IMG/VR virus record: IMGVR_UViG_2778261256_000005
Coordinates: 1-34,588 of that record
Reading direction: 5' to 3' (one strand)
Source: a virus
Taxonomy: Duplodnaviria; Heunggongvirae; Uroviricota; Caudoviricetes
DNA: 34,588 nucleotides
The translations under genes and the position numbers were made by a program. Position 1 is the first letter of the stretch. Each line of letters starts with the position of its first letter. Shown here piece after piece: positions 6,147 through 34,588 of the stretch. The notes under the pieces were generated by a model. It searched no databases, was not told where the DNA came from, and saw only the letters and a list, made by a program, of their open reading frames with translations.

Positions 6147-6239
6147 CCTGTAGCACATTGAAATAAAAGGATTTATCTCAACAAACGTCCACATAGTGAC
6201 CACATCGACAATACAAACCCCGTTTCGACGGGGTTTCTT

Positions 6240-7427
6240 ATGCGTGTCAATAAGTCCACAGAGCATTCCCGACATCCGCAAAAAATGTTAACATCCATAA
6301 AAACACCAAGCGTAATTATTATAATGAAATATATTTTTGAATACGGACTTTATCTCAGCATACTTATAGCGACAATATATGTCACTTCTAAGTTATTGGG
6401 TATTACACCTGCAAAACATAAATACGCCTCGCTTGATGGCTTACGTGGAATTTGTGCAGCAATGGTTGCTGTATTCCATCTTTACTGGAGAGCCGGAGGA
6501 GAATCAGATATATACTGGTCTCTTGAGTACATTACACTCAGCAATGTAAAACGCGCCATATATCTAACAGGAGAGTTATCTGTTGGGGTCTTTTTTATGC
6601 TGTCTGCTTTTTTATTTTTCAAAAAGGCACTAGCGGACTCCTTCGATGTAAAAAGCTTTGCAATTTCACGATTCATGCGAATTTACCCACCTGTAGTTGT
6701 TCTTTTATTTATAATATATATTGCAACATTTATCATGAATCCGGATAACCATACTCCAGTATCGCAATGGTTTATATCTTCATTACCATTTATATTCAAT
6801 CCGCCTGGCGCTAACATCAATGGTGTATCGCTCCAGATTGCCACATCTGGTGTGTTCTGGACGTTAGTCTGGGAATTACGCCTATACCTTGCAATTCCAT
6901 TTTTATATCTGATAATGAAAAACATCAAATATAAAGAAGCATTTGTTATTTTTTTAATGGGATGTGTTTTATTATTCAAGTATTTTATAAACAATGAACA
7001 ACACCTGAGTTATATAATGTATTTCCTTGCAGGATTTCTTGTCGCTACAATCAAGAGCAACAAGCGCCCATCAGATATAATCTGCGCTTTATTATTATTC
7101 GCAGCCATATATTTTACTCGACATGCTTACAACACTACAACTCCGCTTTATATGTTTATTGTTTTCTACACAATAAAGTGCGGATGTGATTACTTTGGCT
7201 TACTTACATCCCTGCCTGTAACTATGCTGGGAACCTGCAGTTTCTCCCTTTATTTAGTTCATGGGATAACTCAAACAGTATCTAAACATTATTTATATAG
7301 TGCAGGAAACTATGTTTGGCAGATTTGTGCAATTATTGCGGCAGGTATCATTGCGCCGGTTATGTACAAATATGTCGAAAGTCGCAGCATCATACATAAG
7401 CGTCCTCAACTTCAGATTGCAAAGTAG
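6240..7427 (+). CDS. Acyltransferase family 3 integral membrane protein (Oac/OafA-like, putative surface polysaccharide O-acetyltransferase)
   Basis: Strongly AT-rich ORF; multi-pass hydrophobic protein with LDGLRGICAAMVAVFHL, FFMLSAFL, RFMRIYPP and SFSLYLVH motifs typical of acyltransferase-3 family; start uncertain (ATG 6240, 6285 or 6324, none with a strong SD). Confidence 0.7.
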   Translation: MRVNKSTEHSRHPQKMLTSIKTPSVIIIMKYIFEYGLYLSILIATIYVTSKLLGITPAKHKYASLDGLRGICAAMVAVFHLYWRAGGESDIYWSLEYITLSNVKRAIYLTGELSVGVFFMLSAFLFFKKALADSFDVKSFAISRFMRIYPPVVVLLFIIYIATFIMNPDNHTPVSQWFISSLPFIFNPPGANINGVSLQIATSGVFWTLVWELRLYLAIPFLYLIMKNIKYKEAFVIFLMGCVLLFKYFINNEQHLSYIMYFLAGFLVATIKSNKRPSDIICALLLFAAIYFTRHAYNTTTPLYMFIVFYTIKCGCDYFGLLTSLPVTMLGTCSFSLYLVHGITQTVSKHYLYSAGNYVWQICAIIAAGIIAPVMYKYVESRSIIHKRPQLQIAK

Positions 7428-7434
7428 AACATTT

Positions 7435-7454
7435 GCGCCCCTGAACAGGGGCGC
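7435..7454. other. GC-rich stem-loop just after acyltransferase gene (terminator-like, no U-tract)
   Basis: gcgcccct (7435-7442) gaac aggggcgc (7447-7454), perfect 8-bp stem. Confidence 0.35.
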
Positions 7455-7519
7455 TATCCCACCACGCTGTTAAAATTTTGTTTCGTCTTACTTAGCATTT
7501 TTAAGTTGCCCATCGGAAA

Positions 7520-7790
7520 AACGTCACAACCATCACGCCCCACAAAAAAAACCATTAACCATCTGATTATCATGAATAAATGTTGTGATGGTAAAACCAT
7601 CACAAAACGTAACGTAAACCGTCACACCCTATAAATTCAGCGAGTTATAAAACAGAGTTGTGATGTTTTAAGGCCGTCACACTGTGATGCTCTTGTGATG
7701 CTCTTGTGATGGTTTTCAATATATGAATTTACTTATACATATCATATAGATAAATGATATTTTTTAAATCTGTGATGTTTGTGACGGTTT
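7520..7790. repeat. Cluster of iteron-like TGTGATG / CATCACA motifs incl. 9-bp inverted repeat and 11-bp tandem duplication, next to an AT-rich block
   Basis: GTGATG at 7585, 7660, 7684, 7695, 7706, 7772; CATCAC at 7531, 7598; inverted repeat ttgtgatgg-N5-ccatcacaa (7583-7605); tandem tgatgctcttg x2 (7686-7707); AT-rich stretch 7712-7770; no ORF >=60 aa in 7430-8440. Confidence 0.5.
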
Positions 7791-8420
7791 TCCGATGCTC
7801 CCCCTAAATTTTTGAAAAAATTAGAAGTGGTCAGAAATCACCCTGATTTGTTGGTGGTTTTGTATATATCTCTGTTAGTGATTTGAGCATTGGTGCAGTA
7901 CGTTAATGTAGGTATGGCTATAGTTCAGGCTGTGCAAAGTATTTCAGTTCCGCATCTCACGGTCATTCCGCGCCAGAACACATCAAATAAGGCCTTGTCA
8001 CTTTCTCCCGCTTACGTGATCCCGCTGCGGCCGTTACGTTAAAAGTCACGTAATCACTGTTAAACCCGCATGAAGTCCGGCACCGTCATTTTTCACCCAC
8101 GGCCGGTAATTGCACAAAAACTGTAATCCTTGAAATCTGTTTCACATATTTCAGTCGGTGAACTACCGCCAAAGCCCCAGCGCTGGCGCAGTCTGGCGAT
8201 GTGTTTTGTACCCCCAGAAAAACTGAAATCATTCTCAACACGAAAACCGCAGGCGGGTGCGGTGTAGCGCCGTTTTCGTCACTTCCGCCGTTATTTCGTC
8301 GTGGCAGGCTGCATCAGCGCCTTGCTGTGCTTTTAAAGCTAATTAAGTTGGGATTGGAGCGGGTGTAGATACTGTCGGCGCTCAGAATGCGTCTGGTGAG
8401 GTCTGGTGGGTGCGATAAAG

Positions 8421-8444
8421 CCCGCATGACGCGGGCTGGTTGAG
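8421..8444 (-). terminator. Putative terminator of the phage late (tail) operon
   Basis: Perfect 7-bp stem agcccgc/gcgggct (8421-8438) directly after stop of the 567-aa gene, followed on minus strand by ttat. Confidence 0.4.
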
Positions 8445-8447
8445 AAA

Positions 8448-10151
8448 TCAGGCGATAATGTTCTGGTACTTGCTCCGGGTCTGCCCGGCTTTCGTCGCCG
8501 TCTGTGTAAACTCGGCGGCATTGGTTGGAGTCCCAACGGTGGGGTGTGAATGGTTCGCGCATTGCTGCGCCAGTTCTGCCAGTAAATCAATGGTGTCCAG
8601 CATCATGGTCAGGGCGTTGATACTCTCGCTGCCAATATGGACTGTTGCCCCCATGACCTGCTGACCGCCAGCGGCCACTGATTTACGCAGTGCGGCAATC
8701 TTCTCTGTCAGGCTTTCGCCAACCTCCACGGCTACAGCACCGCCCACTTTAGTGGACTGCTGTCCTGCTATGTCCGTTTCTTCGTTTCCTTCAATACTGG
8801 CCAGCCTGTTACCTTTCACCGCCTGGCTATAATCACCGGCGCTTACCTGCTGGATGGCTCCGGCCAGCAGTGTGGTGGTTCCCAGTACCGTGGTTTTGTC
8901 CGTGGCTTTCACCGTGGTTTCACGGCTGACCAGTTCGCGCTGCTCCGTATCGGCTTTTACGGTTCGCGCCATCGATGTTTCACTGATGGTTTGATCGGTC
9001 TGCCTTACCCAGTCTCCAGCCTGAGTCACCCTCTGGGATACTTCTTCCCTCTGCTGCTGCAATTGCTCACCGGGTTTAACGTCCGGCAGGCTGGTACCAT
9101 CCGGCAGCGTCTGCCTGATAAAGGGTTTATCCGGTCTGCCTCCCGTGAATGCAACCTCAACCAGCGTCCCTTCTGGCGGAAACTGAAACATACCTGAATC
9201 ATTCCCGGCCATTGGCACCGGCAGCGGCACCGCTGAGTAAACAGGCGTCTGATTGTCCGGGTTTCCGTCTGCGTCAAGCAGCTGAACGTCCACGGCATAA
9301 CGTGGCCGGAATGGATCGGCAAAATTACCACTTTTCACGGGTTCAGTATGTGCCACCACTCTGGCCATCTTTGGCAGATGAAGCCCGGAAGCCAGTTCCG
9401 GATAATGGCTCTCAATCTGTCGTTGTGTCGGTGTTTTCTGAAGGGGGCTGCCTGTGACGCGGTTCCGGGGTGTCCAGGTGATAGTCATCGTGTCATTTGT
9501 AAGATGGACTTTGGTGACCCGTTCACCGTTAAGCTCAACGCCGGGTCGTATCGTCTGGATCACCGGTAACGTTATGGTATTCCCGCCAGCAGCCCCCTGG
9601 CTGAACTCTGCCGGCACTTCGACCGGACGACCGGTAAACAGTGACTTTTCAGCACCGCCGACGTAAAGCGAACCATCAGGCAACTGGTACCAGATGTAAT
9701 CCTGGATACTGAATGCCCTGCCCAGGTTGTTCAGCAACTGATAGCCGGTACCGTTATGGGTGAAATGGGGGATCGGAGTATCGCTGTAAGACACATCGGG
9801 TACACTGACACCGATCCCGCTGTTTTCCGTCAGCCAGCCGGCTACATCCCTTAATGTCGGGTGCTGAAATGAACATGGCCACATCCTTTCAAAAACACCG
9901 GCCAGCTCACGAATGAACAGACGCTGATAACCGTTTTCAGCTGGTTGTGAACGTTCAACATAACCGGTAAACCAGCGCAAAAGCAGGTCGGTATATCCCA
10001 CATCCAGCCGCACCAGTTTCCCGGTATAATCAGTGGTTGTCTCTGCGGTAATAAATCCCCGACCGCAACTGTTAAGCTCCAGTACCAGGCTGGCATCAGC
10101 CAGATGCACTTCATCCGTTGAAAGGTAAAGACGTTTAACTGGTTTCATCAT
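8448..10151 (-). CDS. Phage tail/baseplate protein, putative hub-spike (gpD/gpV- or VgrG-like), 567 aa
   Basis: Last gene of translationally coupled tail operon (start overlaps upstream stop, TAATG); C-terminal half is T/V/A/G-rich like spike beta-structure; family assignment is by position and composition only. Confidence 0.4.
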   Translation of the reverse strand: MMKPVKRLYLSTDEVHLADASLVLELNSCGRGFITAETTTDYTGKLVRLDVGYTDLLLRWFTGYVERSQPAENGYQRLFIRELAGVFERMWPCSFQHPTLRDVAGWLTENSGIGVSVPDVSYSDTPIPHFTHNGTGYQLLNNLGRAFSIQDYIWYQLPDGSLYVGGAEKSLFTGRPVEVPAEFSQGAAGGNTITLPVIQTIRPGVELNGERVTKVHLTNDTMTITWTPRNRVTGSPLQKTPTQRQIESHYPELASGLHLPKMARVVAHTEPVKSGNFADPFRPRYAVDVQLLDADGNPDNQTPVYSAVPLPVPMAGNDSGMFQFPPEGTLVEVAFTGGRPDKPFIRQTLPDGTSLPDVKPGEQLQQQREEVSQRVTQAGDWVRQTDQTISETSMARTVKADTEQRELVSRETTVKATDKTTVLGTTTLLAGAIQQVSAGDYSQAVKGNRLASIEGNEETDIAGQQSTKVGGAVAVEVGESLTEKIAALRKSVAAGGQQVMGATVHIGSESINALTMMLDTIDLLAELAQQCANHSHPTVGTPTNAAEFTQTATKAGQTRSKYQNIIA

Positions 10152-10696
10152 TAACCCAAAGCATCATTGACGGGCTTCAGCACCTTGCGTTCAAACCACG
10201 TCAGTTTTTCTTCATCTTCTCCGGCCGTCTGACCACCGGATTGTTCCGCGCTGCCGGTTGTCTGTTTTTTCGCAGTGGTTTTGCCGGTTGATCTGGCTTC
10301 CCGCTTTTCCTGTACGCTAATATGTTCCGCCAGCGTGAAAGTCACCATCCAGGACATTTTCCCGTCCTGCTGTGGTGCATCCAGCATTCCGCTGAATGTG
10401 GCCTCACGAAAATTCACCGCTCTGGCAACCTCATGCGCAACACGGTATGTCTGTCGTTTCCCGCTACTATCGGTAGCGCTGGCCAGTTCAAAGATACGCT
10501 TCAGAATCTCCGGATTTTTGAAAGGAATTTCGCCACTGATACGCAGCTCCTTTCCTTTTGCCCCCTGCTCAGATTTTGACGTTGCGCTGGTCTGCCCTGA
10601 CTGGTCTTTATCCTGAAACTGCTGTGAGACTGTCACGCGCATATTCTTCAGCTGTATGGCCTCGCCGTTAAGCGCCAGTGTCGGGATCGAAGTCAT
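10151..10696 (-). CDS. Phage tail protein, function unknown (181 aa)
   Basis: Within coupled tail operon; low-complexity K/Q/T/G-rich C-terminus; no recognisable motif. Confidence 0.4.
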   Translation of the reverse strand: MTSIPTLALNGEAIQLKNMRVTVSQQFQDKDQSGQTSATSKSEQGAKGKELRISGEIPFKNPEILKRIFELASATDSSGKRQTYRVAHEVARAVNFREATFSGMLDAPQQDGKMSWMVTFTLAEHISVQEKREARSTGKTTAKKQTTGSAEQSGGQTAGEDEEKLTWFERKVLKPVNDALG

Positions 10697-11393
10697 GAAT
10701 CATTCCCTTTATTCCATCAAGATTATCGCCAACCAGCATCATGGCAGCGGTGTAAACGGCAGACTGCTGCGGAATGTCCTTCACCAGTTCCAGTAACATG
10801 GTGCCGGTGTCTCCGCTGGCAGTAAAAACCCACGCTCTGGCACTCTTCCCCTGTAAATCGTTCAGGCCGTTGGCCACATCACTGATAAGTTGGTCACGCA
10901 GCTGCGTGAACTCGCCCAGCTGTTTTTTCAGCCCTTCGATATCAAACCCGGCACCCGCCGCCTTTTGTGCCTGGCTGATTGCCGCAGCAGATAAAGCTGC
11001 CCTGCTGGTTGGTACAGACAGCGGAATGGACGCAGGTAACGCAGCGGCGGTTTTCGCAGGGATCTGCATCTTTTCAATAGCCAGCGCTGCGGCGGATTGC
11101 GCCAGCCGTTTGACCTGCGTGAATGCCGGGGCGGGGAAAATCCCGACCAGGTTATTCAGGCTGGCCATAAAGTTTTCCTGTGTCTGTCCGGTGACCATCA
11201 TAATCACCACGTCCACATTCCCCCCTGTTCCGGCCAGGCGTTCAGCAAGATAGCGAACAGCATTAACCGGGCTGAGATATGCCCCGTTTGCTGTCTGCTG
11301 TCCCAGCCCATAAATCCACGGATGCGCAGGGACGATCGAACAGTTCGACGCAGCAACAGAATCCGTGAAGGCCAGACGTGCTTCACGCCACAT
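10668..11393 (-). CDS. Phage tail protein, function unknown (241 aa from ATG 11393)
   Basis: ATG at 11393 preceded by GGAGGTG at 7-nt spacing; track ORF 10668..11429 has unsupported 5-prime extension. Confidence 0.45.
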   Translation of the reverse strand: MWREARLAFTDSVAASNCSIVPAHPWIYGLGQQTANGAYLSPVNAVRYLAERLAGTGGNVDVVIMMVTGQTQENFMASLNNLVGIFPAPAFTQVKRLAQSAAALAIEKMQIPAKTAAALPASIPLSVPTSRAALSAAAISQAQKAAGAGFDIEGLKKQLGEFTQLRDQLISDVANGLNDLQGKSARAWVFTASGDTGTMLLELVKDIPQQSAVYTAAMMLVGDNLDGIKGMIHDFDPDTGA

Positions 11394-11970
11394 TTCCAGG
11401 CACCTCCGGCCACACAATTTCCGGCGCATCTTCCGGTTGAATACGGTTCATTAAAACGCGGTATTTTTTCCATGCGGTAAGCAGCAGTGCTTCTTCTTCG
11501 GTCGCCATGTCTAAATCTACGGCATCCTGCAATGTGGCAATGGCATCACTGGCCTGTTTAAGTAGTCTTTTCTTTTCTGCATCTGCCTCGCTGACTAATG
11601 CAGTTCGCATGGCCTCCGCATCATCCACCCACGCCTTTCCATTCCATTTTTGCCAGGCATTAGCCGGGGCTGACGTGGTTGTCCCTTCCGGGTAAGCACC
11701 AGGCTCGGTGATTACCAGTTCATTACCGTTTTCCGTGTCAAACACTACCTCACCACGATGATCCTCACGGGAAATCCATCTTTGCTTCTCTGAATCAAAA
11801 ATCGCCACAAATCCCGCTTTTATTGCCTGTGGCTTTATCGTGGTGCAGTTAGCTGGCAGTCCGGTATGTGCAGGAATAAAAGCGTCACCCGAACCAATAA
11901 ATTCATTCGTATCGGAACGCAGGTTATAAACAGTAACTGTTTGATCGGTTTCACTCATTTTAAAAGTCAT
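11383..11970 (-). CDS. Tail fibre assembly protein (Tfa/gpG-like chaperone)
   Basis: 195 aa immediately downstream of tail fibre gene (TAATG overlap); C-terminal region resembles conserved Tfa C-terminus. Confidence 0.7.
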   Translation of the reverse strand: MTFKMSETDQTVTVYNLRSDTNEFIGSGDAFIPAHTGLPANCTTIKPQAIKAGFVAIFDSEKQRWISREDHRGEVVFDTENGNELVITEPGAYPEGTTTSAPANAWQKWNGKAWVDDAEAMRTALVSEADAEKKRLLKQASDAIATLQDAVDLDMATEEEALLLTAWKKYRVLMNRIQPEDAPEIVWPEVPGNVA

Positions 11971-13547
11971 TATGCGAGTCTCACTATGTAGTTGAATGCA
12001 ATATTCTTAACGGTCGTTTCTGTGTTACCCGACGCTGCGACGGTAATGGTGTGACTGTGTGCGCCTATTGCTACAGTGTGAGCATGAGCGCCGATACCTA
12101 CAGTGTGATTGTGCGCGCCAATTCCTACTGTGTGAGCGTGGTTTCCGGCTGATGATGAGTTAGACGCGGATCCCCAGCGTGGCACCTGATTTTGTGTGTT
12201 ATTACCTGAATCAACGTAAGTTCCCCCATAATTCCTAGAATGTACGTGTGCCCCCGTTGTATTCGTCGTTTTAGTCCCATAATCAAAAGTGCTGGCTGTT
12301 TTGGTACCGTAATCGAATGAGGATGTCGATTTCGTCCCCAGATCGGTACTGGATGCACTGGCTGTATGGGTATGGGATTTATTGCCATCATCTTCATAGG
12401 AGAGAACTGCGCGGCCGTCTGGTTTCCCTTTGATCGTCCGCCCACGCGCATCAGGAATTACGCCCGATGGATAAGCAATAGCCAGTAAAGGATATGCCGC
12501 CTTATCAAAAGATTGTCCCTGCATAATTGCCCACCCGGCAGGTGGAATATCCGTTGACCAGGGCAGCGGCACACCAACAGGAAGAACATCACTACGGCTT
12601 AAAACGGCCAGTTCCCCCAGATCCAGGCTTTTCCTGGCTTTTGCCTTGTCGTTAACATCTGCAAGATTTGCATCTTTACGTAAAAAATCACTGCTGGCCT
12701 GCTGTTCGCTCAGGCTACCTTTTGGCCGTAAATCCGTGATGTTGCCGTCTGCATCAATGCTGGCCACCGCAAACACGTAATGCTGAACCCCGTTCTGAAC
12801 GTAATCAGCAAGATTTGCTGCCACCGTGATTTTGCTCTGCACATTCCAGACGCTGGTCAGCGTTCCCGTCCAGCACACATCCAGCCAGACTTTCACTGGC
12901 TTCGTTGCCACCGTTATATTCTGGTTAGCAGCCAGTGATGCCCGGAGTCCTGCCACATAGCCCGTGCCCTTAGTGACGAAAAACTGATTTCCTGTTTTAG
13001 CGACCAGATACCCGTTACCAAAAAACGCCGCCGCGCCATAAATATCTGTATTTTCAATTCGCTGGCGTTCATCCATTCCACCCATGCGTGCAGTGAAGTC
13101 AATCTGCCAGGTTTCTGCTGGCGTATTGATGCCGGTTTCCGTCTGTGCGCCGTTGTATTCCATCAGGAAAGAACGGGTCAGGACATTCCCCTGCTGCCCT
13201 TCTGCAGTTTTCAGCTTTTGCTGGACAGGCGCATGCACAATCATCGCCAGCGTGCCGCTGGCCTTGTTAATCAGGCCGATCCAGTTAAACGAAAAATCGC
13301 CCACATCCGCCCCCAGCACAACGGAGTGCACCACGGCATTTTCATTCACCACACCTTTACGGCTGACTGCCTGCCGGTGAACAATCTGCGCGGCCGGTGG
13401 CAGTGTCTCGCTGCGATCAACGGGTTGTTCTGGATTCAGTCCCGGCACGTTCGCAAAAACAAATTCGTCCAGCAGGACAGGCTCGCCAGTGGCACCCTGC
13501 AGCGCCTTCCACTGTTCAAATGCCAGTGTGATAGCTGTCTGTGACAT
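11970..13547 (-). CDS. Tail fibre protein (gpH-like) with C-terminal His-box repeats
   Basis: 525 aa; GGGAG SD; C-terminus contains repeated GAHxHTVxIGAH units and TKxTSxFDYGTK repeats. Confidence 0.8.
12057..12137. repeat. Three imperfect 27-bp tandem repeats inside tail fibre gene (encode HTVGIGAH units)
   Basis: Units 12057-12083, 12084-12110, 12111-12137 visibly related. Confidence 0.6.
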
Positions 13548-13556
13548 AAAATCTCC

Positions 13557-15321: not shown

Positions 15322-15647
15322 AAATCCACCTGATATGAAAGCGTGCCAAAATCGTATGTGCTCGCGGTCACCCACAGCCGTTTCTGGCTTTCTTCACTGA
15401 TTTCCACCGTTCCCGGCACAATGCGCTCATCGTTTTCAACCAGTAATTCCAGTTGTGTAAAAATATCTGCCCTCAGTGTCGGACTGCGTTCCGCAATTAA
15501 TTGCGTGGCTAATCCGCTCTCAATAATGGCGTGAATAATGTCCTGCCCGATACTTTTTCGGTTATTGCATAATTCAGGCTCATTACCGGCATTTAATGAG
15601 AAGTCACCATTCTCAATAAGCAGGTCAATATAAAGAATCTCACTCAC
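15318..15647 (-). CDS. Putative baseplate wedge protein (gpW/gp25-like position), 109 aa
   Basis: Small acidic protein between tape measure and J-like gene; ATGA overlap with tape measure stop. Confidence 0.4.
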   Translation of the reverse strand: MSEILYIDLLIENGDFSLNAGNEPELCNNRKSIGQDIIHAIIESGLATQLIAERSPTLRADIFTQLELLVENDERIVPGTVEISEESQKRLWVTASTYDFGTLSYQVDL

Positions 15648-24429: not shown

Positions 24430-24463
24430 ATTCTTTTTCCTTAAAGAAAAGTAGTGTTATCCC

Positions 24464-28244: not shown

Positions 28245-28297
28245 TGTTCGCAAAAAGGCTAAAATATCATCGTTTTCCAACTTCCGGAGCGATGGAT

Positions 28298-28573
28298 ATG
28301 CGGGTAATGAAGGTTTACTGTCCGGTATGTGAGGCAAGGGCTGTTATCAAAAAAACAGCCCGAAAACACAAGGAACTGTCGGATTTATATTGCGCGTGTA
28401 CCGATGTTGAATGTGGTCACACTTTTGTGATGAATATGACATTCTCACATACCATCAGCCCCAGCGCCAAATCCAGCGATGCGTTGATCGCCACTATCTG
28501 TAACAGCCTTGATATCCAGCAAAAGCAGCTGATGTTAAAGTTTCTGAGTCAGGACGGCACTGCTGCCGCATAG
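28298..28573 (+). CDS. Ogr/Delta-family zinc-finger late-gene activator
   Basis: CPVC-x21/23-CAC-x4-C-GHTF pattern aligns with P2 Ogr CPLC...C...C..TF; start ambiguous (ATG 28244 TAATG-coupled to portal, 28298 with GGAG, or 28307). Confidence 0.6.
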   Translation: MRVMKVYCPVCEARAVIKKTARKHKELSDLYCACTDVECGHTFVMNMTFSHTISPSAKSSDALIATICNSLDIQQKQLMLKFLSQDGTAAA

Positions 28574-28575
28574 AA

Positions 28576-28605
28576 AAAAGCACCGCTACCGGTGCTTTTA
28601 TTTTC
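28576..28605 (+). terminator. Rho-independent terminator after ogr-like gene
   Basis: Stem agcaccg (28579-28585) / cggtgct (28590-28596), loop ctac, T-run. Confidence 0.65.
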
Positions 28606-28678
28606 TGAGATGTAACAGATTCCCATCTATCAACGTCGATGAATGACCAAGTGATTAATAGTCCCCCCCTCCTAAACA

Positions 28679-28687
28679 TGATATTAT
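28679..28687 (+). promoter_or_regulatory. Candidate extended -10 promoter element (TGaTATTAT) for the glycosyltransferase cargo gene
   Basis: TG at 28679-28680, hexamer tattat 28682-28687, about 25 nt upstream of ATG with GGGAGG SD. Confidence 0.3.
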
Positions 28688-28712
28688 CTTTCCAAATTTT
28701 GGGAGGCATCTT

Positions 28713-29432
28713 ATGTTAATAGTCTCAGTTCTTAAATGTAGTAAAGAGTTTACCCCTAAACACGCCCAATGGCTTCATCGTCAGTTCAAAGATATTCCAT
28801 CTATATGTTTAACCGATGCAGATAATATTCCTGGAGTTAACACAACCCCTTTGCTTTATAACTGGCCGGGATGGTGGTCTAAAATTGAACTATTTAATCC
28901 TAATCACCCAGTCCTTGGAGACCAAGATTTACTCTATTTTGACGTAGATGTTGTGGTCACGGGAGATATTCATATTTTCGAAGGTGCGAAGAAATTTACA
29001 ATGCTTCGGGAGTTTAACCATGCCTCAAGAGTAAACTCATCAATAATGATGATTCCGGCGTCGATTAAAAAGACGATTTGGGAACAATTCATTATTGATC
29101 CTGAGAAAATTATGCGCAATTGTCAGACTGAAGACAAATGGGGTGATCAGGGATTTCTCGGTAGCATCATAAAACCAGCCCTATGGCAGGATATCATTCC
29201 TGGCTCAATTGTTAGTTATAAATGTGACATCGCCACCCCCTCGATGATTGGCTTCAATGCAAATTTAGCCTCTGAGGCTGCGACAGGGAAAGTCCCTGAT
29301 AATGTGGCGGTTGTTTGCTTTCATGGCAGTCCACGCCCCTGGCGTACTGGTTTTGATTGGGTTCCTTCGTTTTCCCTGCGGGATACTCTGTACGGTAAAT
29401 TAAAGAACTTTAAAATAAGAATGAAGCAATAA
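28713..29432 (+). CDS. GT8-family (GT-A fold, retaining) glycosyltransferase-like protein, 239 aa
   Basis: AT-rich ORF with strong SD (GGGAGG); motifs LLYFDVDVVV (DxD), WGDQGFL and VVCFHGSPRPW align with LgtC/WaaJ-type GT8 motifs (YLDIDVLV, QDQDILN, HYCGPAKPW); no signal peptide or TMD. Confidence 0.6.
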   Translation: MLIVSVLKCSKEFTPKHAQWLHRQFKDIPSICLTDADNIPGVNTTPLLYNWPGWWSKIELFNPNHPVLGDQDLLYFDVDVVVTGDIHIFEGAKKFTMLREFNHASRVNSSIMMIPASIKKTIWEQFIIDPEKIMRNCQTEDKWGDQGFLGSIIKPALWQDIIPGSIVSYKCDIATPSMIGFNANLASEAATGKVPDNVAVVCFHGSPRPWRTGFDWVPSFSLRDTLYGKLKNFKIRMKQ

Positions 29433-29500
29433 AGATAACGCCCCTATTGCTTCAATGTTCGCTCCTTCCCCTAACAATAAAGTTAGGCACTAGTGAACCG

Positions 29501-32158
29501 TTACTTTTCCCGGCCAAATATCCAGCAGCGGAATGTTTCCGGCATCCGTTGCATATCCCCTTTACCACGATTATGGCGCTCACTTACCGCGCTGCGCGTG
29601 GTGCTTTGTCTGATAAACCGGCGCTCATTGCCGTTTTTAAGCAGCTTTTTAATTTCCGTTAACGTGAACGGAATACGCTGCCGGTGTGCTGCGGCGACCT
29701 CTTCCATGTGATTGAAATTAACCGCGATTTCATTTTCATCTGATGAATGATTGATGCCATAAGGTGCCAGTTCATCCAAGTAATCAAACAGCTCCCAGAA
29801 CTCCTGCACCAGAGGATGATCCTTTTTAAGTGCCTGACAACGTTCAACGGCCAGCGCGGTGATGGCTTCACGCGTTTTTTCTATACGTTCAACCGGCACC
29901 GGTACAACAAGTGCAAGCGCCTCCAGCAAGCCCACAAGCTGCGCGTGATTCTTTGCAATACGGATATGGCGAATACTGCTATTAGACTCCAGCTCATTCC
30001 TAGCTCGCTCGTACCCCCTGCCGAACGTCTGCATGATTTCTTTTTCGCGCATGGTGGCCAGTAATGTGAATCCGGATACCTGGCTAACGGGGAGTTGTTC
30101 AAGTCGTTCTGCAGCGTGGCGCGTCTGAATGGACTGGCCGCGCTTGTCGGTATAGATGTGGATGATACGCTCCAGAAACGCCTTGCTGCCGTCTGTGTCG
30201 GCATTTTGCGCTATCACAATACTTCCCCTGAACGGCGGCTCATACGTCTCGTTATTGTTCGATTTGATACCCACGGCGCGGGAGGCACGACCGTTATACA
30301 GTGATTTCAGCTCGTCCCAGTCAAAAGCGCGTTGCTTGGCGTTATCGGTAGTACGGTCGCCCTCAATCAGCACAACCGGCAGATTACCGACCTGGGCGAA
30401 GTTACGGCCACGCGCGGCGGCGGTAGATTTAGATGGGTCAAACCCTTCGTATTCCTCACGGCCGGCGAGCTTCCAGAGAAATTCTATCAGCGTGGATTTA
30501 CCTGTCCCCGGCTCGCCCACGATTTCCAGAAACGGAAATGACTTGTCACGCTCGCGGATTTGTTCGGCAAACAGCGACCCCAGCCAGAACGCCAGCGCCA
30601 CATACCCTTTTTCACCAAATGCCGTCCAGATATCGTCTACCCAACCCGTAGTAAACTCGTTCAGCTTCGGATTCAGATCCAGCGCCGGCGTGAGGCTCAG
30701 GCTCTTAACGCTGGCACTGTTGATTTCGAAGTAATCCTCGTCGTTCATCTCATACAGCCGGCCATCGCAAACGGCCACGCGGTTAAACAACCAGGCGGCA
30801 TAATCCTTGTTATAGCCGATGAAATTCTGCGTCTTTACCTCTTTGATTTCAGGGAGGCGCATCTGGATGAACTTATCCAGCTGTTTGGTGCTGCCTGTGT
30901 ACACCGCCCCTTTGGCGATGTGCAGCAGACGCTTTTTGAACTCGGCGGAGCTGGTGAGCTGATTAGCCGTGAAAGTATCTTTCACGGCTGGCCGGTTAGG
31001 CATACTGACTTTCACGTAATACCAGGACTCGTCCGTAGGTTCAGACCGCTGAAAGTAAAGCGGCGTCAGCCAGCAGTTAGCTATTTCGGTCACGCCGCCT
31101 GACTCTTTAACCGCCCGTTCTTTGGCCTCCCACTCCATCACCACTTCGGTACCGGTATTGGTGATGCGCTCATAGGCTCGCATATACCTGTCCAGATCCA
31201 GCTCAAACCAGTACATGCGGGAGTTATGCTCAAAGTAGAACGAGTGCCACTCGTTATGCTGATGCATGAGCAGCGCTTTCTCAGTCGGGCTTTTTGCCAG
31301 AAGGAGATCGCCATAGTAGCGATAATTTTTAATGTCCGACTTACTGAACCGGTTACGTAACAACAGGTCATTCCAGTCCAGCGATGCCGATGATTTCACC
31401 GGCTGCGCGGCACGAGTTTTCCATCCTGCAGCATCACTACGGGCAGCGAACGCCAGTGTGTGCTTTGTGCCGGCTTTATCGCCGTCAAACGCCCATACAA
31501 GACGTGGACGTGGTTTTTCACCCAGTTCTTTGGCCAGCGTATCCAGTGCGGCCAGCGGATAGTTGTTACTGCTCAGTGTGGCAACTGCAGGTAACCCTGC
31601 CTGGCACAGACTCAGCGCGTTGAAGATTCCCTCAGTGATCCAGATTTCGTTCACTTCCTGCAGGTTGATAAAGGGAGGAACCCACCAGTGACCGACATAG
31701 CTTCCCCTGATGTTGGCTTTCTGCTTACCGAAGCGCTGCGGCTGGTCAATGATGCGCTCCCATGTTGCACCGCATGACAGCGAAAATCTGACCGTTGCCG
31801 ACCCCATGCCATCTTTCACGAATGCACCCTGGGTAAAACAGCCTTTTAATGGCTCAGTCTCCAGCCCTCTGGCCTCGCGCAGATACGCCTCAGCTACTGC
31901 ATGGGGGTTATCTTCTGTGGTCTGGTAACGTTTTGACCAGTCTTCAAAGATATCCGGATACAGCTCTTTCACGACAATCTGATGTGCGCAGTTATTTTCA
32001 CGGCCACATTTCAGAATCCAGGGCTTTTCTATGCTGGTAAATAATTCGCGCTTACGACAGGCAGGGCAAACGCCCTGCTGCAAATACTTATCCCGCTCTT
32101 TAAATTCAAAGTCCCGAACAAGACGGCGCACAACGTCCTGTTGTATCGTTTCGTTCAT
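29501..32158 (-). CDS. Replicative primase-helicase (N-terminal zinc finger, TOPRIM primase, D5-like P-loop NTPase)
   Basis: 885 aa; CPACx15CGRENNCAH zinc-binding pattern, acidic TOPRIM-like segment (WITEG ... DGDKAG), Walker A VGEPGTGKST. Confidence 0.8.
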   Translation of the reverse strand: MNETIQQDVVRRLVRDFEFKERDKYLQQGVCPACRKRELFTSIEKPWILKCGRENNCAHQIVVKELYPDIFEDWSKRYQTTEDNPHAVAEAYLREARGLETEPLKGCFTQGAFVKDGMGSATVRFSLSCGATWERIIDQPQRFGKQKANIRGSYVGHWWVPPFINLQEVNEIWITEGIFNALSLCQAGLPAVATLSSNNYPLAALDTLAKELGEKPRPRLVWAFDGDKAGTKHTLAFAARSDAAGWKTRAAQPVKSSASLDWNDLLLRNRFSKSDIKNYRYYGDLLLAKSPTEKALLMHQHNEWHSFYFEHNSRMYWFELDLDRYMRAYERITNTGTEVVMEWEAKERAVKESGGVTEIANCWLTPLYFQRSEPTDESWYYVKVSMPNRPAVKDTFTANQLTSSAEFKKRLLHIAKGAVYTGSTKQLDKFIQMRLPEIKEVKTQNFIGYNKDYAAWLFNRVAVCDGRLYEMNDEDYFEINSASVKSLSLTPALDLNPKLNEFTTGWVDDIWTAFGEKGYVALAFWLGSLFAEQIRERDKSFPFLEIVGEPGTGKSTLIEFLWKLAGREEYEGFDPSKSTAAARGRNFAQVGNLPVVLIEGDRTTDNAKQRAFDWDELKSLYNGRASRAVGIKSNNNETYEPPFRGSIVIAQNADTDGSKAFLERIIHIYTDKRGQSIQTRHAAERLEQLPVSQVSGFTLLATMREKEIMQTFGRGYERARNELESNSSIRHIRIAKNHAQLVGLLEALALVVPVPVERIEKTREAITALAVERCQALKKDHPLVQEFWELFDYLDELAPYGINHSSDENEIAVNFNHMEEVAAAHRQRIPFTLTEIKKLLKNGNERRFIRQSTTRSAVSERHNRGKGDMQRMPETFRCWIFGREK

Positions 32159-32417
32159 AAATAATCCAGATGTGAATAATGGGTAAAAGGCAAAAACTAT
32201 ATTCTGTACTGCTTGTTATATCGCTCATGTGTCATTAGTTCCCAGCTTCTGCCCTTATCCTTACTCAGTAATCGTCAGCGATAAGAAACATGAACAGAGA
32301 AATAATGTTTTGGCTTAATAACCTGATATACCTTTTTGCCGTTGTAATATTCTGTCAGCACTGAAAATGCCTTGTGAATGACACTTTCACTTGCATGAGA
32401 GGTCACTGTAAGCATCG

Positions 32418-32987
32418 TTATTTCACACTGGCTATTTTTACAAGATACATCCAGACATAAGAAACAACTTTAGCCTGATGAATGGCATCATATAAAGCGT
32501 GATGTTTAACACCATCAAACTTAATAATATTACGAACATTCAGCCCAAGTGTTTTTGACAGTTCAACAACCGTTCTTACATCACGGTCATTCCAGTAGTA
32601 CCAAAGTGGATCGGCAAACCCGCATTTCTCTGATGCATTACGTAAAATAACATTGTCGAACGCTGCACTATTCCCCCATACCTGTACTTTAGATGGGTCA
32701 GAATGCTCAGTAATAAAAGCTTCCAGATTAGCTAACGTCAGAGGCAAGTCCAGACAATCGTCATTAAGCAGCTCGCTACGCGCTTCGGCATCCTGACGCA
32801 TCCACCATAATACGGTTTCTGACCCCATAGTGAGACCGTGGCCTACACAGCTGCCCAGGCTGACACGTTGATAAAACTGTTCACCCATTTCGCCAGTTTC
32901 AGGGTCAAAGAATACAGCACCGATAGAAGCAATCGCAGAAGTCGGTTTATTATCCATTGTTTCAAGATCAATCATTAAATGTTTCAT
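32418..32987 (-). CDS. DnaQ-like 3-prime-5-prime exonuclease (DEDDh family)
   Basis: 189 aa, N-terminal MIDLETM Exo I motif, downstream H..D motif; AAGGA SD. Confidence 0.65.
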   Translation of the reverse strand: MKHLMIDLETMDNKPTSAIASIGAVFFDPETGEMGEQFYQRVSLGSCVGHGLTMGSETVLWWMRQDAEARSELLNDDCLDLPLTLANLEAFITEHSDPSKVQVWGNSAAFDNVILRNASEKCGFADPLWYYWNDRDVRTVVELSKTLGLNVRNIIKFDGVKHHALYDAIHQAKVVSYVWMYLVKIASVK

Positions 32988-32996
32988 ATCGGTTCC

Positions 32997-33332
32997 TTAA
33001 CGTTGGGAAGCTGCAACAGATTTAAGATGCGAGTTATTACTTTTTAACGCTGTGGTAGCCAGCGACATAAGACCGGAAATGTTATTTTCAGTTGGTATAT
33101 TTCCGCCAAATACCATAAGCGTGATTTTGTGCAGTTCTTCAAAATCATCACTATCATTATTAAAGCGAGCAGTGGAGGTTATACCCTCAAGGCATTTTGC
33201 AAGCTGAATGTTTAATTCCATTAACTGCAAGCCATCGCTATGTACAGAGAATGTTTCTTTATCAATGGTTTTTGCCTGAGCGTGATAGTTTTGCAACAGA
33301 CTACGAATCAGCGTGGCATATTTAGTCTTCAT
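32997..33332 (-). CDS. Hypothetical early-operon protein (111 aa from ATG 33332)
   Basis: Track ORF start 33344 is a TTG; ATG 33332 has GGGGA SD. Confidence 0.4.
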   Translation of the reverse strand: MKTKYATLIRSLLQNYHAQAKTIDKETFSVHSDGLQLMELNIQLAKCLEGITSTARFNNDSDDFEELHKITLMVFGGNIPTENNISGLMSLATTALKSNNSHLKSVAASQR

Positions 33333-33358
33333 GATAATCCCCAATAATATTTAGTTTA

Positions 33359-33640
33359 CTAACGAGCACTTTTATCTTTCGTGAATAAACGGTTCTTCCA
33401 GTCATGCCATTCAGGCGGGGCAATTTGAGCCAAATGAATGGCATAAGCATCCCATTCCCCCCGATGGATATAGATTTCTCCACCTTTTTTTGATGGATTT
33501 AGAGGGTCTTTCATGCGGATTACCGGCAGTTTTCCAGCCGTGGCCATTTTGCGAATTGCAGCAGGCGTTTTGCCTATATATTCGGCAAAAAGCTCAGGGG
33601 TCACCAACTCTGAAAGCGCCTTTTCTGCTGGTTCCTTCAT
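33359..33640 (-). CDS. Cox-like excisionase/early-operon regulator
   Basis: 93 aa first gene of leftward early operon divergent from C repressor; HTH-like region ending GKLPVIRM; size matches P2 Cox (91 aa). Confidence 0.55.
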   Translation of the reverse strand: MKEPAEKALSELVTPELFAEYIGKTPAAIRKMATAGKLPVIRMKDPLNPSKKGGEIYIHRGEWDAYAIHLAQIAPPEWHDWKNRLFTKDKSAR

Positions 33641-33659
33641 CTGTGGTATCCTTCGTTAG

Positions 33660-33748
33660 TTTGGGTTCCTAGGGCGCTTTAAGTCGTTCTAGGGTTCTTT
33701 TGTCAAGGTTCTTTTGTAAGAACCAATAATAGTTGCGATACAAGAACC
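33660..33748. promoter_or_regulatory. Immunity switch region with repeated GGTTCTT half-sites (putative C/Cox operators and divergent promoters)
   Basis: GGTTC(T/C)T in direct orientation at 33664, 33693, 33707 and inverted (aagaacc) at 33719 and 33742; TTGTCA -35-like at 33700. Confidence 0.45.
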
Positions 33749-34048
33749 ATGCCAAGAAATTATGCGGAGAAACTCCGGCAGATCCGGAAAGCTGAAGGGT
33801 TAACTCAAAAAGATTTTTCAGAGCTTACTGGGGTAGCTCTTGGAACAATAAAAAAGTACGAAACTGGCCATCAGCCAGCTCGTGCAGAAGTCTTAGAAAG
33901 TGTTATAGAGGTACATATGTTTGAAAAATATACACTCTGGTTAATGACAGATAAGACGGCACCAATTGCGGGGCAGGTGTCCCCGTCTCTCTCCCCTGAT
34001 GGGCAAGACAACATAACATCATCCCGTTCCACCCGGAAAATTGGCTAA
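33749..34048 (+). CDS. Immunity repressor, P2 C-like
   Basis: 99 aa (same length as P2 C); HTH plus KYTLWLMTDKTAPIAGQVSP resembling remembered P2 C KYTLWFMTNQIAPESGQIAP. Confidence 0.75.
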   Translation: MPRNYAEKLRQIRKAEGLTQKDFSELTGVALGTIKKYETGHQPARAEVLESVIEVHMFEKYTLWLMTDKTAPIAGQVSPSLSPDGQDNITSSRSTRKIG

Positions 34049-34114
34049 ACATCTGGTTTTTCTATGCGTTAGCGCAAAATTTACATAATGATTCATACAT
34101 CGGAGGGCTTCGCT

Positions 34115-34511
34115 ATGTCGATTAAGAAGCTTGATGATGGTCGTTTTGAAGTGGACGTTAGACCGCGCGGAACCTCAGGAAGAAGGATTCGACGCAAATT
34201 TGACAGAAAGGCGGAAGCACAGGCATACGAGCGGTATGTACTGACAAACTTTCACGATAAAGAATGGCAGGATAAACCCGCAGACAGGAGGCTTGTATCC
34301 GAGTTAATTTCTTTATGGTGGAGCTACCATGGAAAGAATCACAACTATGGTGACTCATATAAAAAGCGTTTGGAAAAAATCAACCGAGAAATGGCGGAAC
34401 CCAGAGTGTACGAGCTTACCCGCAACTTTCTGATGAAATATCGTGCAGAACGACTTCATAGTGGAGTATCTGCTGGCACGGTAAACAGGGATTTCTGTTC
34501 CATGTCCAGCA
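34115..34511 (+). pseudogene. P2-like tyrosine integrase, N-terminal ~132 codons only, interrupted by IS10
   Basis: MSIKKLDDGRFEVDVRPRGTSGRRIRRKFDRK matches remembered P2 Int N-terminus (MAIKKLDDGRYEVDIRP...RIRRKFDKK); GGAGGG SD; reading frame runs into IS10 end at 34512 and stops at 34549; catalytic domain absent from window. Confidence 0.8.
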
Positions 34512-34588
34512 CTGATGAATCCCCTAATGATTTTGGTAAAAATCATTAAGTTAAGGTGGATACACATCTTGTCATATGATCAAATGGT
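34512..34588 (+). mobile_element. IS10 (Tn10-type) outside end, first 77 bp (element continues beyond window)
   Basis: ctgatgaatcccctaatgattttggtaaaaatcattaagttaaggtggatacacatcttgtcatatgatcaaatggt matches the remembered IS10 outside terminus containing the pIN/pOUT region. Confidence 0.8.

Follow-up and report, generated by a model that had tools for sequence, protein, structure and literature searches.

A mosaic Evevirus-type prophage downstream of raiA, with an IS10 end in its integrase gene

Introduction

The late-gene architecture of the 'HP1-like viruses' of Lavigne et al. 2009 is known, and in both HP1 and phiCTX cos adjoins attP (PMC2771037). Haemophilus phage HP1 (Hpunavirus), unlike the element described here, has a gpA-type Rep nickase, a lambda-CI-like repressor and a cos–attP interval without a cargo gene. 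The Pseudomonas phage phiCTX (Citexvirus), which integrates into a tRNA gene, encodes the 895-aa primase orf37, and its attP–cos interval contains a dense, AT-rich array of repeats, with the cargo gene ctx adjoining cos. Closest to the present element is Escherichia phage ESSI2_ev239 (Peduoviridae; Evevirus ev239; NC_049392 / LR597637). We analysed a stretch of viral DNA of 34,588 nt (the window), in which a preliminary description had placed a mosaic P2-family prophage of Peduovirus type directly downstream of raiA.

Results and discussion

Integration site and boundaries

The insertion point lies 24 nt after E. coli raiA, in the raiA/RaiZ terminator hairpin, and K-12 carries the empty raiA|pheL site, confirming the proposed location.

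6120–6141, plus strand: attL core AACGCGCCTTCGGGCGCGTTTT, the raiA/RaiZ terminator hairpin, a direct repeat with the pheL-adjacent sequence in NZ_AP023286 (empty site in K-12)
6158–6209, minus strand: attP P-arm remnant, with an IHF-like site (~6158–6180) and the Int arm repeats ATGTGGTC and ATGTGGAC (6186–6209)

Host sequence identical to K-12 runs up to position 6141, which sets the left boundary at 6141/6142. This is 9 nt to the left of the bracket of 6150–8440 given before, so that the start claimed at 6150 is already 8 nt into the prophage. As stated before, the right boundary falls outside the window: attR, read from an otherwise 99.98% identical genome, lies ~605–625 nt past its end, giving an intact prophage of ~29.05 kb. 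The perfect attL/attR repeat is 16 bp (6126–6141) within the 22-bp att core, whose hairpin (6120–6141) scored as terminator-like. In P2, the annotated P arm TCGATGTGGTCAATGTGTGGACGT and IHF site are nearly identical to the P-arm remnant, which is also 78–79% identical to the attP regions of P2-like coliphages. Entry was very probably by P2-type Int/IHF site-specific recombination into the hairpin; because the phage carries a 22-bp copy of it, the raiA/RaiZ terminator is rebuilt at attL.

Identity of the element

ESSI2_ev239 was the closest match, with 91.9% identity over 94% of the query. The intergenomic similarity of ~81% is below the species threshold of 95%, and on these sequence comparisons the prophage is placed as a separate species-level member of the already-classified Evevirus, not in Peduovirus, the genus of P2. 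We conclude that positions 6142–34511 are very probably a single temperate myovirus prophage (Peduoviridae, genus Evevirus, ESSI2_ev239-like), in which four known module types are combined and int is cut by IS10.

The left end might suggest two separate elements, a low-GC acyltransferase island (6142–8440) beside an unrelated prophage, as the GC content is 38% at 6001–8000 against 51–58% in the late genes, and a stretch of ~1 kb (7428–8447) has no annotated gene. However, the low-GC left end with its acetyltransferase and spacer occurs between int and the tail end in the virion DNA of ESSI2_ev239 (90.6% identity), and therefore belongs to the phage. In addition, the search for att direct repeats gave one pair only, which encloses the entire 29 kb, the P2-type Int arm and IHF sites lie to the left of the acetyltransferase, and the gene-free stretch holds cos and the iteron array. 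Two elements are therefore highly improbable.

The prophage is structurally complete. All of its ORFs are full length relative to their ESSI2_ev239 counterparts, and no pseudogenes were flagged by PGAP in the near-identical genome. Contractile-tail clusters are sometimes kept alone, and the primase is of the general Toprim/SF3 type used also by P4-like satellites, but a tailocin (a domesticated tail-only element) or a phage satellite is scarcely conceivable here, as the head, portal, terminase, scaffold, lysis, immunity and integration genes are complete and of full length, and the nearest relative was classified and deposited as a phage genome.

Lysogeny switch, integrase and IS10

The right part of the window holds the immunity and integration genes.

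33359–33640, minus strand: Phage_Cox, 93 aa (profile match; 38% identity to P2 Cox)
33641–33755, minus strand: immunity switch region with an early promoter candidate (−35 TTGGCA at 33755–33750, −10 TATTAT at 33731–33726)
33749–34048, plus strand: immunity repressor of the C type with an HTH_3 match, 99 aa (P2 C, 38% identical across 99/99 aa)
34115–34511, plus strand: 5′ part of a tyrosine integrase, codons 1–132 of 330 (55% identity to P2 Int), the catalytic domain (residues 164–307) being absent
34512–34588, plus strand: end of IS10/ISVsa5 (IS4 family) inserted in int, the last 77 nt of the window

Direct repeats TGGTTCTT at 33749–33742 and 33725–33718 flank the −10 element of the early promoter candidate. 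The annotated Pe, O1 and O2 of P2 have the same geometry, and by this analogy the two 8-bp repeats are putative C operators.

The prophage had been taken to run to 34588; this holds up to 34511, and the remaining nucleotides are not prophage DNA. The 77-nt IS10 end was found at 100% identity in at least 2,000 plasmids and adjoins an IS4-like transposase in R100, IS10 being an element of 1,329 bp with 17/23 terminal repeats. An artefact of assembly (a chimeric contig or a repeat that was collapsed), which would leave int intact and the prophage fully competent, has to be considered, since the junction is only 77 nt from the window end, where assemblies often break, was found in 0 of 5,426 complete E. 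coli genomes searched, and is spanned by an uninterrupted int in all of the prophage-carrying genomes among the matches listed. Yet int gives way to IS10 with the very first base of the element's terminal repeat (CTGATGAATCC...), as in a true insertion, and a chimera is unlikely to break precisely at the terminus of an element; assemblers usually terminate contigs within genuine repeat copies. An artefact is thus unlikely, and IS10 has very probably inserted after int codon 132 in this strain. From the truncated reading frame, the prophage is probably unable to excise on its own.

Replication genes, iteron array and cos

The early operon and two non-coding elements at the opposite end are as follows.

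29501–33640, minus strand: early operon of cox (93 aa), orf111, an Rv2179c-like 3′–5′ exonuclease (189 aa) and an 885-aa Toprim plus SF3-helicase-like primase
7522–7786, no strand: iteron-like array in which TGTGA(T/C)G occurs 11 times, in both orientations, together with a stretch of 86% AT at 7715–7770
8253–8267, no strand: candidate cos GCGGGTGCGGTGTAG, the identical 15 nt being present at both ends of the ESSI-2 record

The primase is 40.7% identical to phiCTX orf37 over its full length, which indicates replication via a phiCTX-type primase instead of gpA. The iteron array is kept in ESSI2_ev239 and absent from relatives with gpA-type replication, and phiCTX has an analogous array at the equivalent relative position. 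As the array goes with the primase in two lineages and is missing from four gpA-type relatives, it is a candidate replication origin. Alternatively, it could be a packaging accessory (a cosB-like terminase-binding or IHF-binding site) or a regulatory site, as it lies 470–730 bp from the cos candidate and the phiCTX repeat region has annotated IHF sites and adjoins cos. This possibility is a doubtful one: no such array exists in ev129, ESSI-2 or HP1, whose terminases are homologous and whose cos side is arranged in the same way. Late-gene DNA is 84% identical between ev129 and the prophage. Its distribution follows that of the primase-type replication module instead, and the repeats of the prophage and of phiCTX have diverged in sequence along with the primases, which are 40% identical. 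We therefore retain the origin as the candidate function.

Two further observations point to cos. The linear ESSI2_ev239 record breaks at window positions 8256–8260, and the candidate follows the end of the tail genes at a distance of ~180–195 nt, the HP1 value being 192 nt.

Head, packaging and late control

The head genes form two divergent groups.

25447–27228, plus strand: terminase large subunit
27225–28244, plus strand: portal, directly after the terminase
28244–28573, plus strand: Ogr/Delta-like zinc-finger activator (C26-X2-C29-X22-C52-X4-C57)
28576–28599: terminator-like hairpin after ogr, closing the block 25447–28599 (plus strand)
22484–25303, minus strand: head operon of GPO scaffold, P2-family major capsid, gpM small terminase and a 63-aa ORF

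The ogr ORF begins at the portal stop codon, and the scaffold, capsid, gpM and GPL genes (25303 down to 21938, minus strand) are divergent from terminase and portal. Pfam, PHROG and tblastn searches supported the P2-family head genes (Q, P, O, N, M, L), the Ogr/Delta zinc finger, Cox, the C-type repressor and the tyrosine integrase. All of the genes previously listed were present in the sizes and orientations given and matched the expected families, so that the P2-family head and immunity assignments withstood the homology searches. The reading as one mosaic P2-family prophage with a P2-like head and C, Cox and Ogr regulators thus holds, but the term Peduovirus-type does not, the tail proteins being of HP1 families and the phage an Evevirus. 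No P2-type late activator sites (TGT-N12-ACA) were found upstream of the late operons, and hence we infer Ogr-dependent late control from the protein alone.

Tail and lysis genes

The tail and lysis genes occupy the minus strand down to the cos side.

19182–22390, minus strand: gpL head completion, gpR-like and gpS-like tail completion, sheath (DUF2586) and tube (HP1 Orf24)
18043–19169, minus strand: lysis cassette of holin, M15 endolysin, Rz-like spanin and an overlapping LysC/Rz1-like gene
15644–18056, minus strand: tail assembly chaperone (85 aa) with a −1 frameshift extension, then tape measure (655 aa)
11383–15647, minus strand: DUF2590 (W position), Baseplate_J, Tail_P2_I, tail fibre (525 aa) and tail-fibre assembly
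8448–11393, minus strand: distal baseplate/spike proteins, 567-aa HP1 orf35-like, 181-aa HP1_ORF34 and 241-aa orf33-like

The tail proteins are 28–62% identical to those of HP1 (sheath 56%, tube 60%; 41%, 40% and 28% for orf35, orf34 and orf33 respectively). Against P2, nothing was detectable for the tail proteins except the C-terminus of the tail-fibre assembly protein, with no match for sheath, tube, tape measure or baseplate proteins; the holin also matches P2. The chaperone has the slippery heptamer A AAA AAC at 17808–17802, and its extension is annotated in RefSeq as a DUF6890 ORF. Baseplate_J, Tail_P2_I, tail fibre and Caudo_TAP matches run from 15321 down to 11383, and the 567-aa protein gave weak gpV OB and gp5 C-terminal signals. 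The W-like gene proposed before agrees in position only, as DUF2590 had no BLASTP similarity to P2 gpW.

Sheath, tube, holin, endolysin, Rz/Rz1, chaperone and tape measure precede the baseplate and fibre genes. The three departures from P2 noted in the preliminary description (baseplate and fibre genes after the tape measure, ogr joined to the portal operon, lysis genes inside the tail cluster) are therefore real, but since the whole late region is colinear with HP1, they represent the known HP1-type layout and not rearrangements of P2.

Cargo genes

Two genes lie outside the modules described above.

6324–7427, plus strand: O-acetyltransferase (Acyl_transf_3, 367 aa), low GC (PF01757, E=5e-29; phrog_3333 O-acetyltransferase; phrog_6705 O-antigen acetylase)
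28713–29432, plus strand: orf239, a GT-A fold, GT8-like glycosyltransferase with an invariant DxD (D77, D79) (phrog_1962)

The O-acetyltransferase, between attP and cos, is 96% identical to ev239 gp35. The predicted structure of orf239 (pLDDT 95.5) matched LgtC and glycogenin with probability 1.00, although the TM-score of the GT8 fold match was modest (0.5–0.58). This gene follows ogr and has terminator-like hairpins on either side; no counterpart was found in ESSI2_ev239, which has two small genes at this place. Both products are probably modifiers of the lysogen cell envelope. The preliminary description mentioned neither these two genes nor the IS10 end, the 11-copy array or cos.

Comparison with known phages

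ESSI2_ev239 has an identical gene order throughout and the same cos position, and its DNA covers everything from the acetyltransferase to int, with late proteins 83–100% and primase 95% identical. It differs in the immunity and integration module (C 43%, Cox 45%, Int 50% identity; another attP core), and its ogr (61%) and exonuclease (48%) have diverged.

The late region of HP1, orf15–orf35, has the order of the prophage gene by gene, with portal and terminase divergent from scaffold, capsid, gpM and gpL, then R/S-like genes, sheath, tube, holin, lysin, Rz, chaperone, tape measure, DUF2590, J, I, fibre, tfa and orf33–35, followed by cos and attP/int. In the HP1 record as deposited, the ogr-like frame that follows portal has no ATG and is missing one Cys.

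With P2, the prophage had no nucleotide similarity at the megablast level. P2 shares Q, P, O, N, M and L with the same division into divergent operons (27–46% identity), an Ogr-type activator, the C/Cox switch geometry, the C–int operon, the E/E+E′-type chaperone frameshift and overlapping lysB/lysC-type spanins. In contrast, the tail/lysis gene order and att core differ, cos is not beside the portal gene in the prophage, ogr follows portal instead of gene D, and gpA/gpB, old, tin and fun(Z) are absent. phiCTX differs in its P2-type tail order and proteins, its repeat sequence and its host.

Cronobacter phage ESSI-2 (Seongnamvirus) and ESSI2_ev129 (Quadragintavirus) share the HP1-type late region with an ogr-like gene at the portal stop, and ESSI2_ev129 has a different acetyltransferase at the equivalent attP–cos position; both differ in having a gpA-type nickase, DNA methyltransferases and CI/CII-type regulators.

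Taken together, the prophage combines P2-type lysogeny, with C and Cox opposed across the switch and C and int in one operon; phiCTX-type replication, the primase-helicase probably acting on the iteron array; a P2-family head and packaging module with an Ogr-type late activator after the portal gene; and an HP1-type contractile tail and lysis module ending at cos on the attP side. Each of these four module types (lysogeny, replication, head and tail/lysis) is already known in the Peduoviridae.

Integration site and extent of the prophage

The first 6.1 kb of the window is E. coli chromosome (clpB, yfiH, rluD, bamD and raiA), and each of the 5,426 complete E. coli genomes searched matched part of this host stretch. 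Only 22 of the 5,426 matched at least 80% of window 1-8500. One E. coli genome, NZ_AP023286, was essentially identical to the window (eight substitutions up to position 34511) and carried the complete prophage between raiA and pheL/pheA. In K-12 the site is empty, with pheL directly after raiA. Host identity extends to window 6141 on the left and restarts in the reference genome at the equivalent of ~35191 on the right, and the sequence AACGC(G/A)CCTTCGGGCGCGTTTT was found at both prophage junctions, its final 16 bp being identical. Thus the element is ~29.05 kb of phage DNA, running from window 6142 to ~600 nt past the window end.

The preliminary description had put the prophage immediately downstream of raiA, with a left boundary within 6150-8440 and a right boundary beyond the window, and had proposed a comparison with prophage-free relatives and a search for att direct repeats. 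The placement holds, as the att core begins 24 nt past the raiA stop codon, and the right boundary does lie outside the window, whereas the actual left boundary is 9 nt to the left of the bracket. K-12 supplied the unoccupied site, and the right flank of NZ_AP023286 supplied the second copy of the repeat.

The junction sequence corresponds to the raiA/RaiZ terminator, stem-loop plus U-tract. The integration core is the terminator of the RaiZ sRNA (raiA 3′ UTR), which still scored as terminator-like at attL. The attL hairpin (6120-6141; compare K-12 sequence L003, 4382-4543) is intact, but its U-tract is changed from TTTTTTGTT to TTTTATTTA. The attR copy has a phage-derived left arm with one stem mismatch and sits just upstream of the pheL promoter region. 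A tRNA scan found no tRNA gene and an Rfam scan found no RNA family within the prophage, so a tRNA-targeting integrase was ruled out. Rfam did detect the RyfD sRNA in the host flank (2755-2893, minus strand), upstream of clpB, an ordinary feature annotated in K-12. A literature search returned no paper on prophage integration at raiA/pheL.

Classification and closest relatives

Among 50,697 phage records, the best megablast match was Escherichia phage ESSI2_ev239 (hereafter ev239), classified in the family Peduoviridae, genus Evevirus, with 91.9% identity over 94% of the query. All of the ORFs are full length compared with ev239. In total, 89% of the prophage aligned to ev239, and the length-summed identity was 81% (a blastn-based intergenomic similarity of ~81%). 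Since the ICTV thresholds for intergenomic nucleotide similarity are at least 70% for a genus and 95% for a species, this value places the prophage within Evevirus and under the species threshold relative to ev239, as a new species-level member of an already classified genus. Six segments of the prophage had no alignment to ev239:

6142-6279, attP arm
28471-29497, ogr end and orf239
32473-32856, part of the exonuclease gene
33336-34095, cox-C switch
most of int
the other attP arm

The reading of this element as a mosaic P2-family prophage was essentially correct at the family level. Its assignment as Peduovirus-type, that is, to the genus of P2, was not sustained. For that genus we required a nucleotide similarity to P2 of 70% or more, together with the gene order of P2, in which lysis genes follow X, V-W-J-I-H-G precede FI-FII-E-T-U-D and cos lies next to Q. 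Megablast gave no match to P2-genus phages, and the gene order was HP1-like with cos on the attP side. The late gene order, the HP1 tail families and a cos adjoining attP are all those of the HP1-like group; the HP1-type early region, with a CI repressor of ~190 aa and a Rep nickase, was absent. Among the papers listed by literature searches, none described the biology of Evevirus or ev239. Positions 1-116 of the ev239 record (LR597637) resemble a tail-fibre interior (window 13240-13355, 83% identity) rather than cos-adjacent sequence, and this end of the linear record was probably misassembled.

A P2-family head joined to an HP1-type tail

Pfam and PHROG searches confirmed the head, tail, Ogr, C and Cox gene calls of the preliminary description, with the following products:

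Head: portal, gpP-type large terminase, GPO scaffold, P2-family capsid, gpM small terminase, GPL head completion
Tail: gpR-like and gpS-like tail completion, Baseplate_J, Tail_P2_I, collar-domain tail fibre, tail-fibre assembly protein
Regulators and integrase: Ogr/Delta zinc finger, Phage_Cox, HTH_3 repressor of 99 aa, tyrosine integrase

The P2-family capsid module Q, P, O, N, M and L is present in divergent PQ and ONML operons, with Pfam matches all above the cut-offs (PF04860, PF03237/PF17289/PF06056, PF05929, PF05125, PF05944 and PF05926). By tblastn the head genes, and these only, were 27-46% identical to those of P2. Pfam, PHROG and tblastn together support the P2-family identity proposed for the head and immunity genes.

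The Ogr/Delta zinc finger (PF04606, E=1e-15) has an intact CX2CX22CX4C motif; over the finger, BLASTP matched it weakly to P2 Ogr (E=2e-4). The longest ogr ORF begins at the stop codon of the portal gene, its zinc finger starts from residue 26, and a hairpin with a T-run lies 3′ of the ogr stop codon. In Cronobacter phage ESSI-2, ev239 and Escherichia phage ESSI2_ev129 (ev129), the ogr-like gene likewise directly follows the portal gene. HP1 also has an ogr-like frame after the portal gene, but as deposited it has no start codon and only three of the four cysteine residues. This unannotated frame (NC_001697, 10420-10635, minus strand; 39% identity over 72 aa, E=6e-15) has no ATG, and F replaces the second cysteine, which points either to a remnant or to an error in the old sequencing.

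The tail is contractile, with J/I baseplate proteins and a −1-frameshift chaperone (Baseplate_J, Tail_P2_I and Phage_TAC_10). Its sheath (DUF2586), tube (HP1 Orf24), DUF2590 protein, HP1_ORF34 protein and 567-aa distal protein are of HP1-type families, with Pfam matches to PF10772 (HP1 Orf24), PF25759 (HP1_ORF34), PF10758 and PF10761. The whole late region was colinear, gene for gene, with annotated HP1 orf15 to orf35: in both, the lysis cassette separates tube from chaperone, and the tape measure precedes the baseplate and fibre genes. The late-region proteins were 28-62% identical to those of HP1, and tblastn at E<1e-3 detected none of the sheath, tube, tape-measure or baseplate proteins of P2, so the tail is a different lineage within the family and not P2 genes reordered. 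The departures from P2 noted in the preliminary description (baseplate and fibre genes after the tape measure, an ogr-like gene joined to the portal operon and lysis genes inside the tail cluster) are all present, but they are standard HP1-type architecture and not oddities. 'HP1-like viruses' had already been split from 'P2-like viruses' by Lavigne et al. 2009 (PMC2771037).

The chaperone gene ends in a frameshift region:

17608-18056, minus strand, tail chaperone gene ending in the slippery heptamer A AAA AAC, with the DUF6890 ORF

The −1 frame is open from A AAA AAC through a 46-aa 'DUF6890 family protein' of RefSeq up to the tape-measure start. By analogy with E+E′ of P2, the DUF6890 ORF is most likely the frameshift extension of the chaperone and not an independent gene. 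The E/E+E′ arrangement of P2 matches this frameshift, as does the region between HP1 orf26 and orf27. The prophage spanin genes overlap as do P2 lysB and lysC. The DUF2590 gene had been labelled W-like; it does occupy that position, but BLASTP against P2 gpW gave no similarity, and the label is thus by position only.

Two further comparisons with P2 were made for the late operons. The P2 late-promoter dyad TGT-N12-ACA was rejected, with eight matches against 8.7 expected and none upstream of a late operon. Inspection of the P/O intergenic region and of the sequence upstream of L showed no obvious shared motif. At the fibre/fibre-assembly junction, a stretch of 178 nt (11842-12019) was 93.8% identical to TfaE of Erwinia phage RF1, which is typical tail-fibre mosaicism.

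A probable cohesive end and the cargo genes

The ESSI-2 record has GCGGGTGCGGTGTAG at both of its ends, and the window carries the same 15-mer exactly at 8253-8267; the linear ev239 record breaks at window 8256-8260. This site, the probable cohesive end, lies ~180-195 nt past the final tail gene; the corresponding distance in HP1 is 192 nt. In HP1 and phiCTX, cos likewise adjoins attP and is not beside the portal gene (Lavigne et al. 2009, PMC2771037).

Two genes of the prophage are not needed for phage growth:

6324-7427, O-acetyltransferase (Acyl_transf_3), low GC, between attP and cos
28713-29432, orf239, in place of two small ev239 genes, with terminator-like hairpins on both sides

The acetyltransferase matched PHROG families annotated as O-acetyltransferase and O-antigen acetylase. 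A different (serine) acetyltransferase is found at the same position in ev129 (NC_049394, 11935-12552), and the ctx toxin gene lies beside cos in phiCTX (362-1222). Since these phages bear different cargo at or near it, the attP-cos region suggests a conserved cargo hotspot in Peduoviridae with the HP1/phiCTX layout.

The second gene, orf239, looks like an independent transcription unit. Searches of Pfam, NCBIfam, PADLOC and PDB sequences gave no match; its family has 602 homologues and no Pfam model, and the informative searches were those of PHROG and of folds only. The structure model (pLDDT 95.5) matched LgtC and glycogenin with a probability of 1.00 and TM of 0.5-0.58, and the DxD motif (D77 and D79) is invariant. 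A GT-A fold with a DxD motif, as in GT8 retaining glycosyltransferases, is thus present at the fold level, with no Pfam GT8 match, and orf239 is predicted from its model to be a GT-A/GT8-like glycosyltransferase. The idea that the orf239 site is an anti-phage defence hotspot was unsupported, as PADLOC gave no system-level match for the cargo and early genes. We infer that both cargo enzymes modify the LPS of the lysogen; as two envelope-modifying genes, they are candidates for lysogenic conversion and phage-receptor blocking.

Replication module and repeat array

The early operon comprises cox, orf111, an Rv2179c-like 3′-5′ exonuclease and an 885-aa Toprim protein with an SF3-helicase-like region (phrog_1139, Toprim/DUF5906). 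No match was detected by tblastn to P2 A or B, which encode the rolling-circle initiator gpA and gpB. The 885-aa primase was 40.7% identical to phiCTX orf37 over residues 1-881, and all of its relatives other than ev239 were at most 47% identical. The recognised relatives (phiCTX orf37, Ralstonia RSY1 and Stenotrophomonas Smp131) belong to P2-like phages of other hosts.

Between the acetyltransferase gene and the end of the tail cluster the DNA is AT-rich and without genes, and here a repeat array adjoins a segment of 86% AT:

7522-7786, 11 TGTGA(T/C)G repeats of mixed orientation spanning 265 bp (repeat as an oligonucleotide, TTGTGATGGTTT)

Eleven of the 18 TGTGA(T/C)G matches in the whole window fall within the array, against ~0.08 expected. 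The array is conserved in ev239 but absent from HP1, ESSI-2, P2 and ev129, all of which use a gpA-type nickase. Unbiased k-mer clustering placed the densest repeat array of phiCTX in the equivalent interval, from attP to cos, with a different repeat sequence; that region of phiCTX is annotated as 'R3 repeats' with IHF sites. Judged from these sequence patterns, the array and its AT-rich flank are a candidate origin recognised by the 885-aa primase-helicase, a proposal for and against which we weigh the evidence about equally. The array might instead serve in packaging, but this is less likely because it is missing in relatives with homologous terminases. If the array is an origin, Evevirus and phiCTX-type Peduoviridae would replicate by iteron-dependent, P4-alpha-like initiation and not by the gpA rolling-circle nick of P2 and HP1, and the origin would sit between attP and cos, not inside the initiator gene. 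A literature search found no paper on the phiCTX origin and no experimental description of the array as an origin. The array offers a testable handle on replication of primase-bearing P2-family phages.

Lysogeny module and disruption of the integrase gene

The lysogeny genes are nearest to those of P2, with identities of 38% for C (full length), 38% for Cox and 55% for Int. In tblastn searches against HP1, no match was found for C, Cox or the primase, and Int was only 40% identical to HP1 Int. The attL-adjacent sequence is an approximately base-for-base copy of the annotated P2 P arm (TCGATGTGGTCA...TGTGGACGT) and IHF site, whereas the core differs. The −35 element of the early promoter falls within the opening codons of C, and its −10 element lies between two direct repeats of 8 bp (TGGTTCTT) with a spacing of 24 bp. 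O1/O2 are arranged around the Pe −10 of P2 with the same geometry, and the C-int operon is likewise shared. By this analogy, we infer that the TGGTTCTT repeats are putative C operators. A P2-type C/Cox switch with putative repeated operators and a C-int operon is recognizable from both its families (Phage_Cox and HTH_3) and its geometry. A consensus scan of the switch region gave no plus-strand Pc promoter candidate.

Window 34512-34588 no longer matches the reference prophage. An IS4-family element carried by thousands of plasmids has an end that was 100% identical to these last 77 nt; on R100 that end adjoins a transposase annotated as 'IS4-like element ISVsa5 family'. The plasmid element measures 1,329 bp and has 17/23 terminal repeats, its transposase starting ~108 nt from the outside end. 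The length and the terminal repeats match those of IS10, an identity read from the plasmid copies, as only 77 nt of the present copy are within the window. Both a lone IS10 and a Tn10 edge are compatible with these 77 nt. The insertion interrupts int after codon 132, so that the catalytic domain (residues 164-307) lies beyond the break. The int/IS10 junction occurs in none of the 5,426 complete E. coli genomes, and the window ends within IS10, as might be expected of an assembly artefact; the switch out of int coincides exactly with base 1 of the terminal repeat, and we regard an artefact as improbable. With a genuine insertion, the IS10-disrupted integrase would strand the prophage in the source strain, where it probably cannot excise without help.

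Distribution and relation to known phages

This prophage type is rare, being present in 55 of the 5,426 complete E. coli genomes. Twenty-two of the 55 copies were at least 99% identical, and those listed were mostly from pigs and pork. Some of the 55 are deletion derivatives at raiA, such as those in NZ_AP027622 (H43/H85) and NZ_CP182159 (H84); in one example the match covers window 1-7914, after which most tail genes are lost. Since some strains hold such derivatives, the prophage is decaying in part of the E. coli population.

The outcome is mostly bookkeeping, in that a rare E. coli prophage type is placed precisely and its integration site in the raiA/RaiZ terminator is defined; the candidate iteron origin is the sole mildly novel thread. 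The apparent oddities of the element come down to the established layout of HP1-type phages, joined to a replication module of phiCTX type and a lysogeny module of P2 type.
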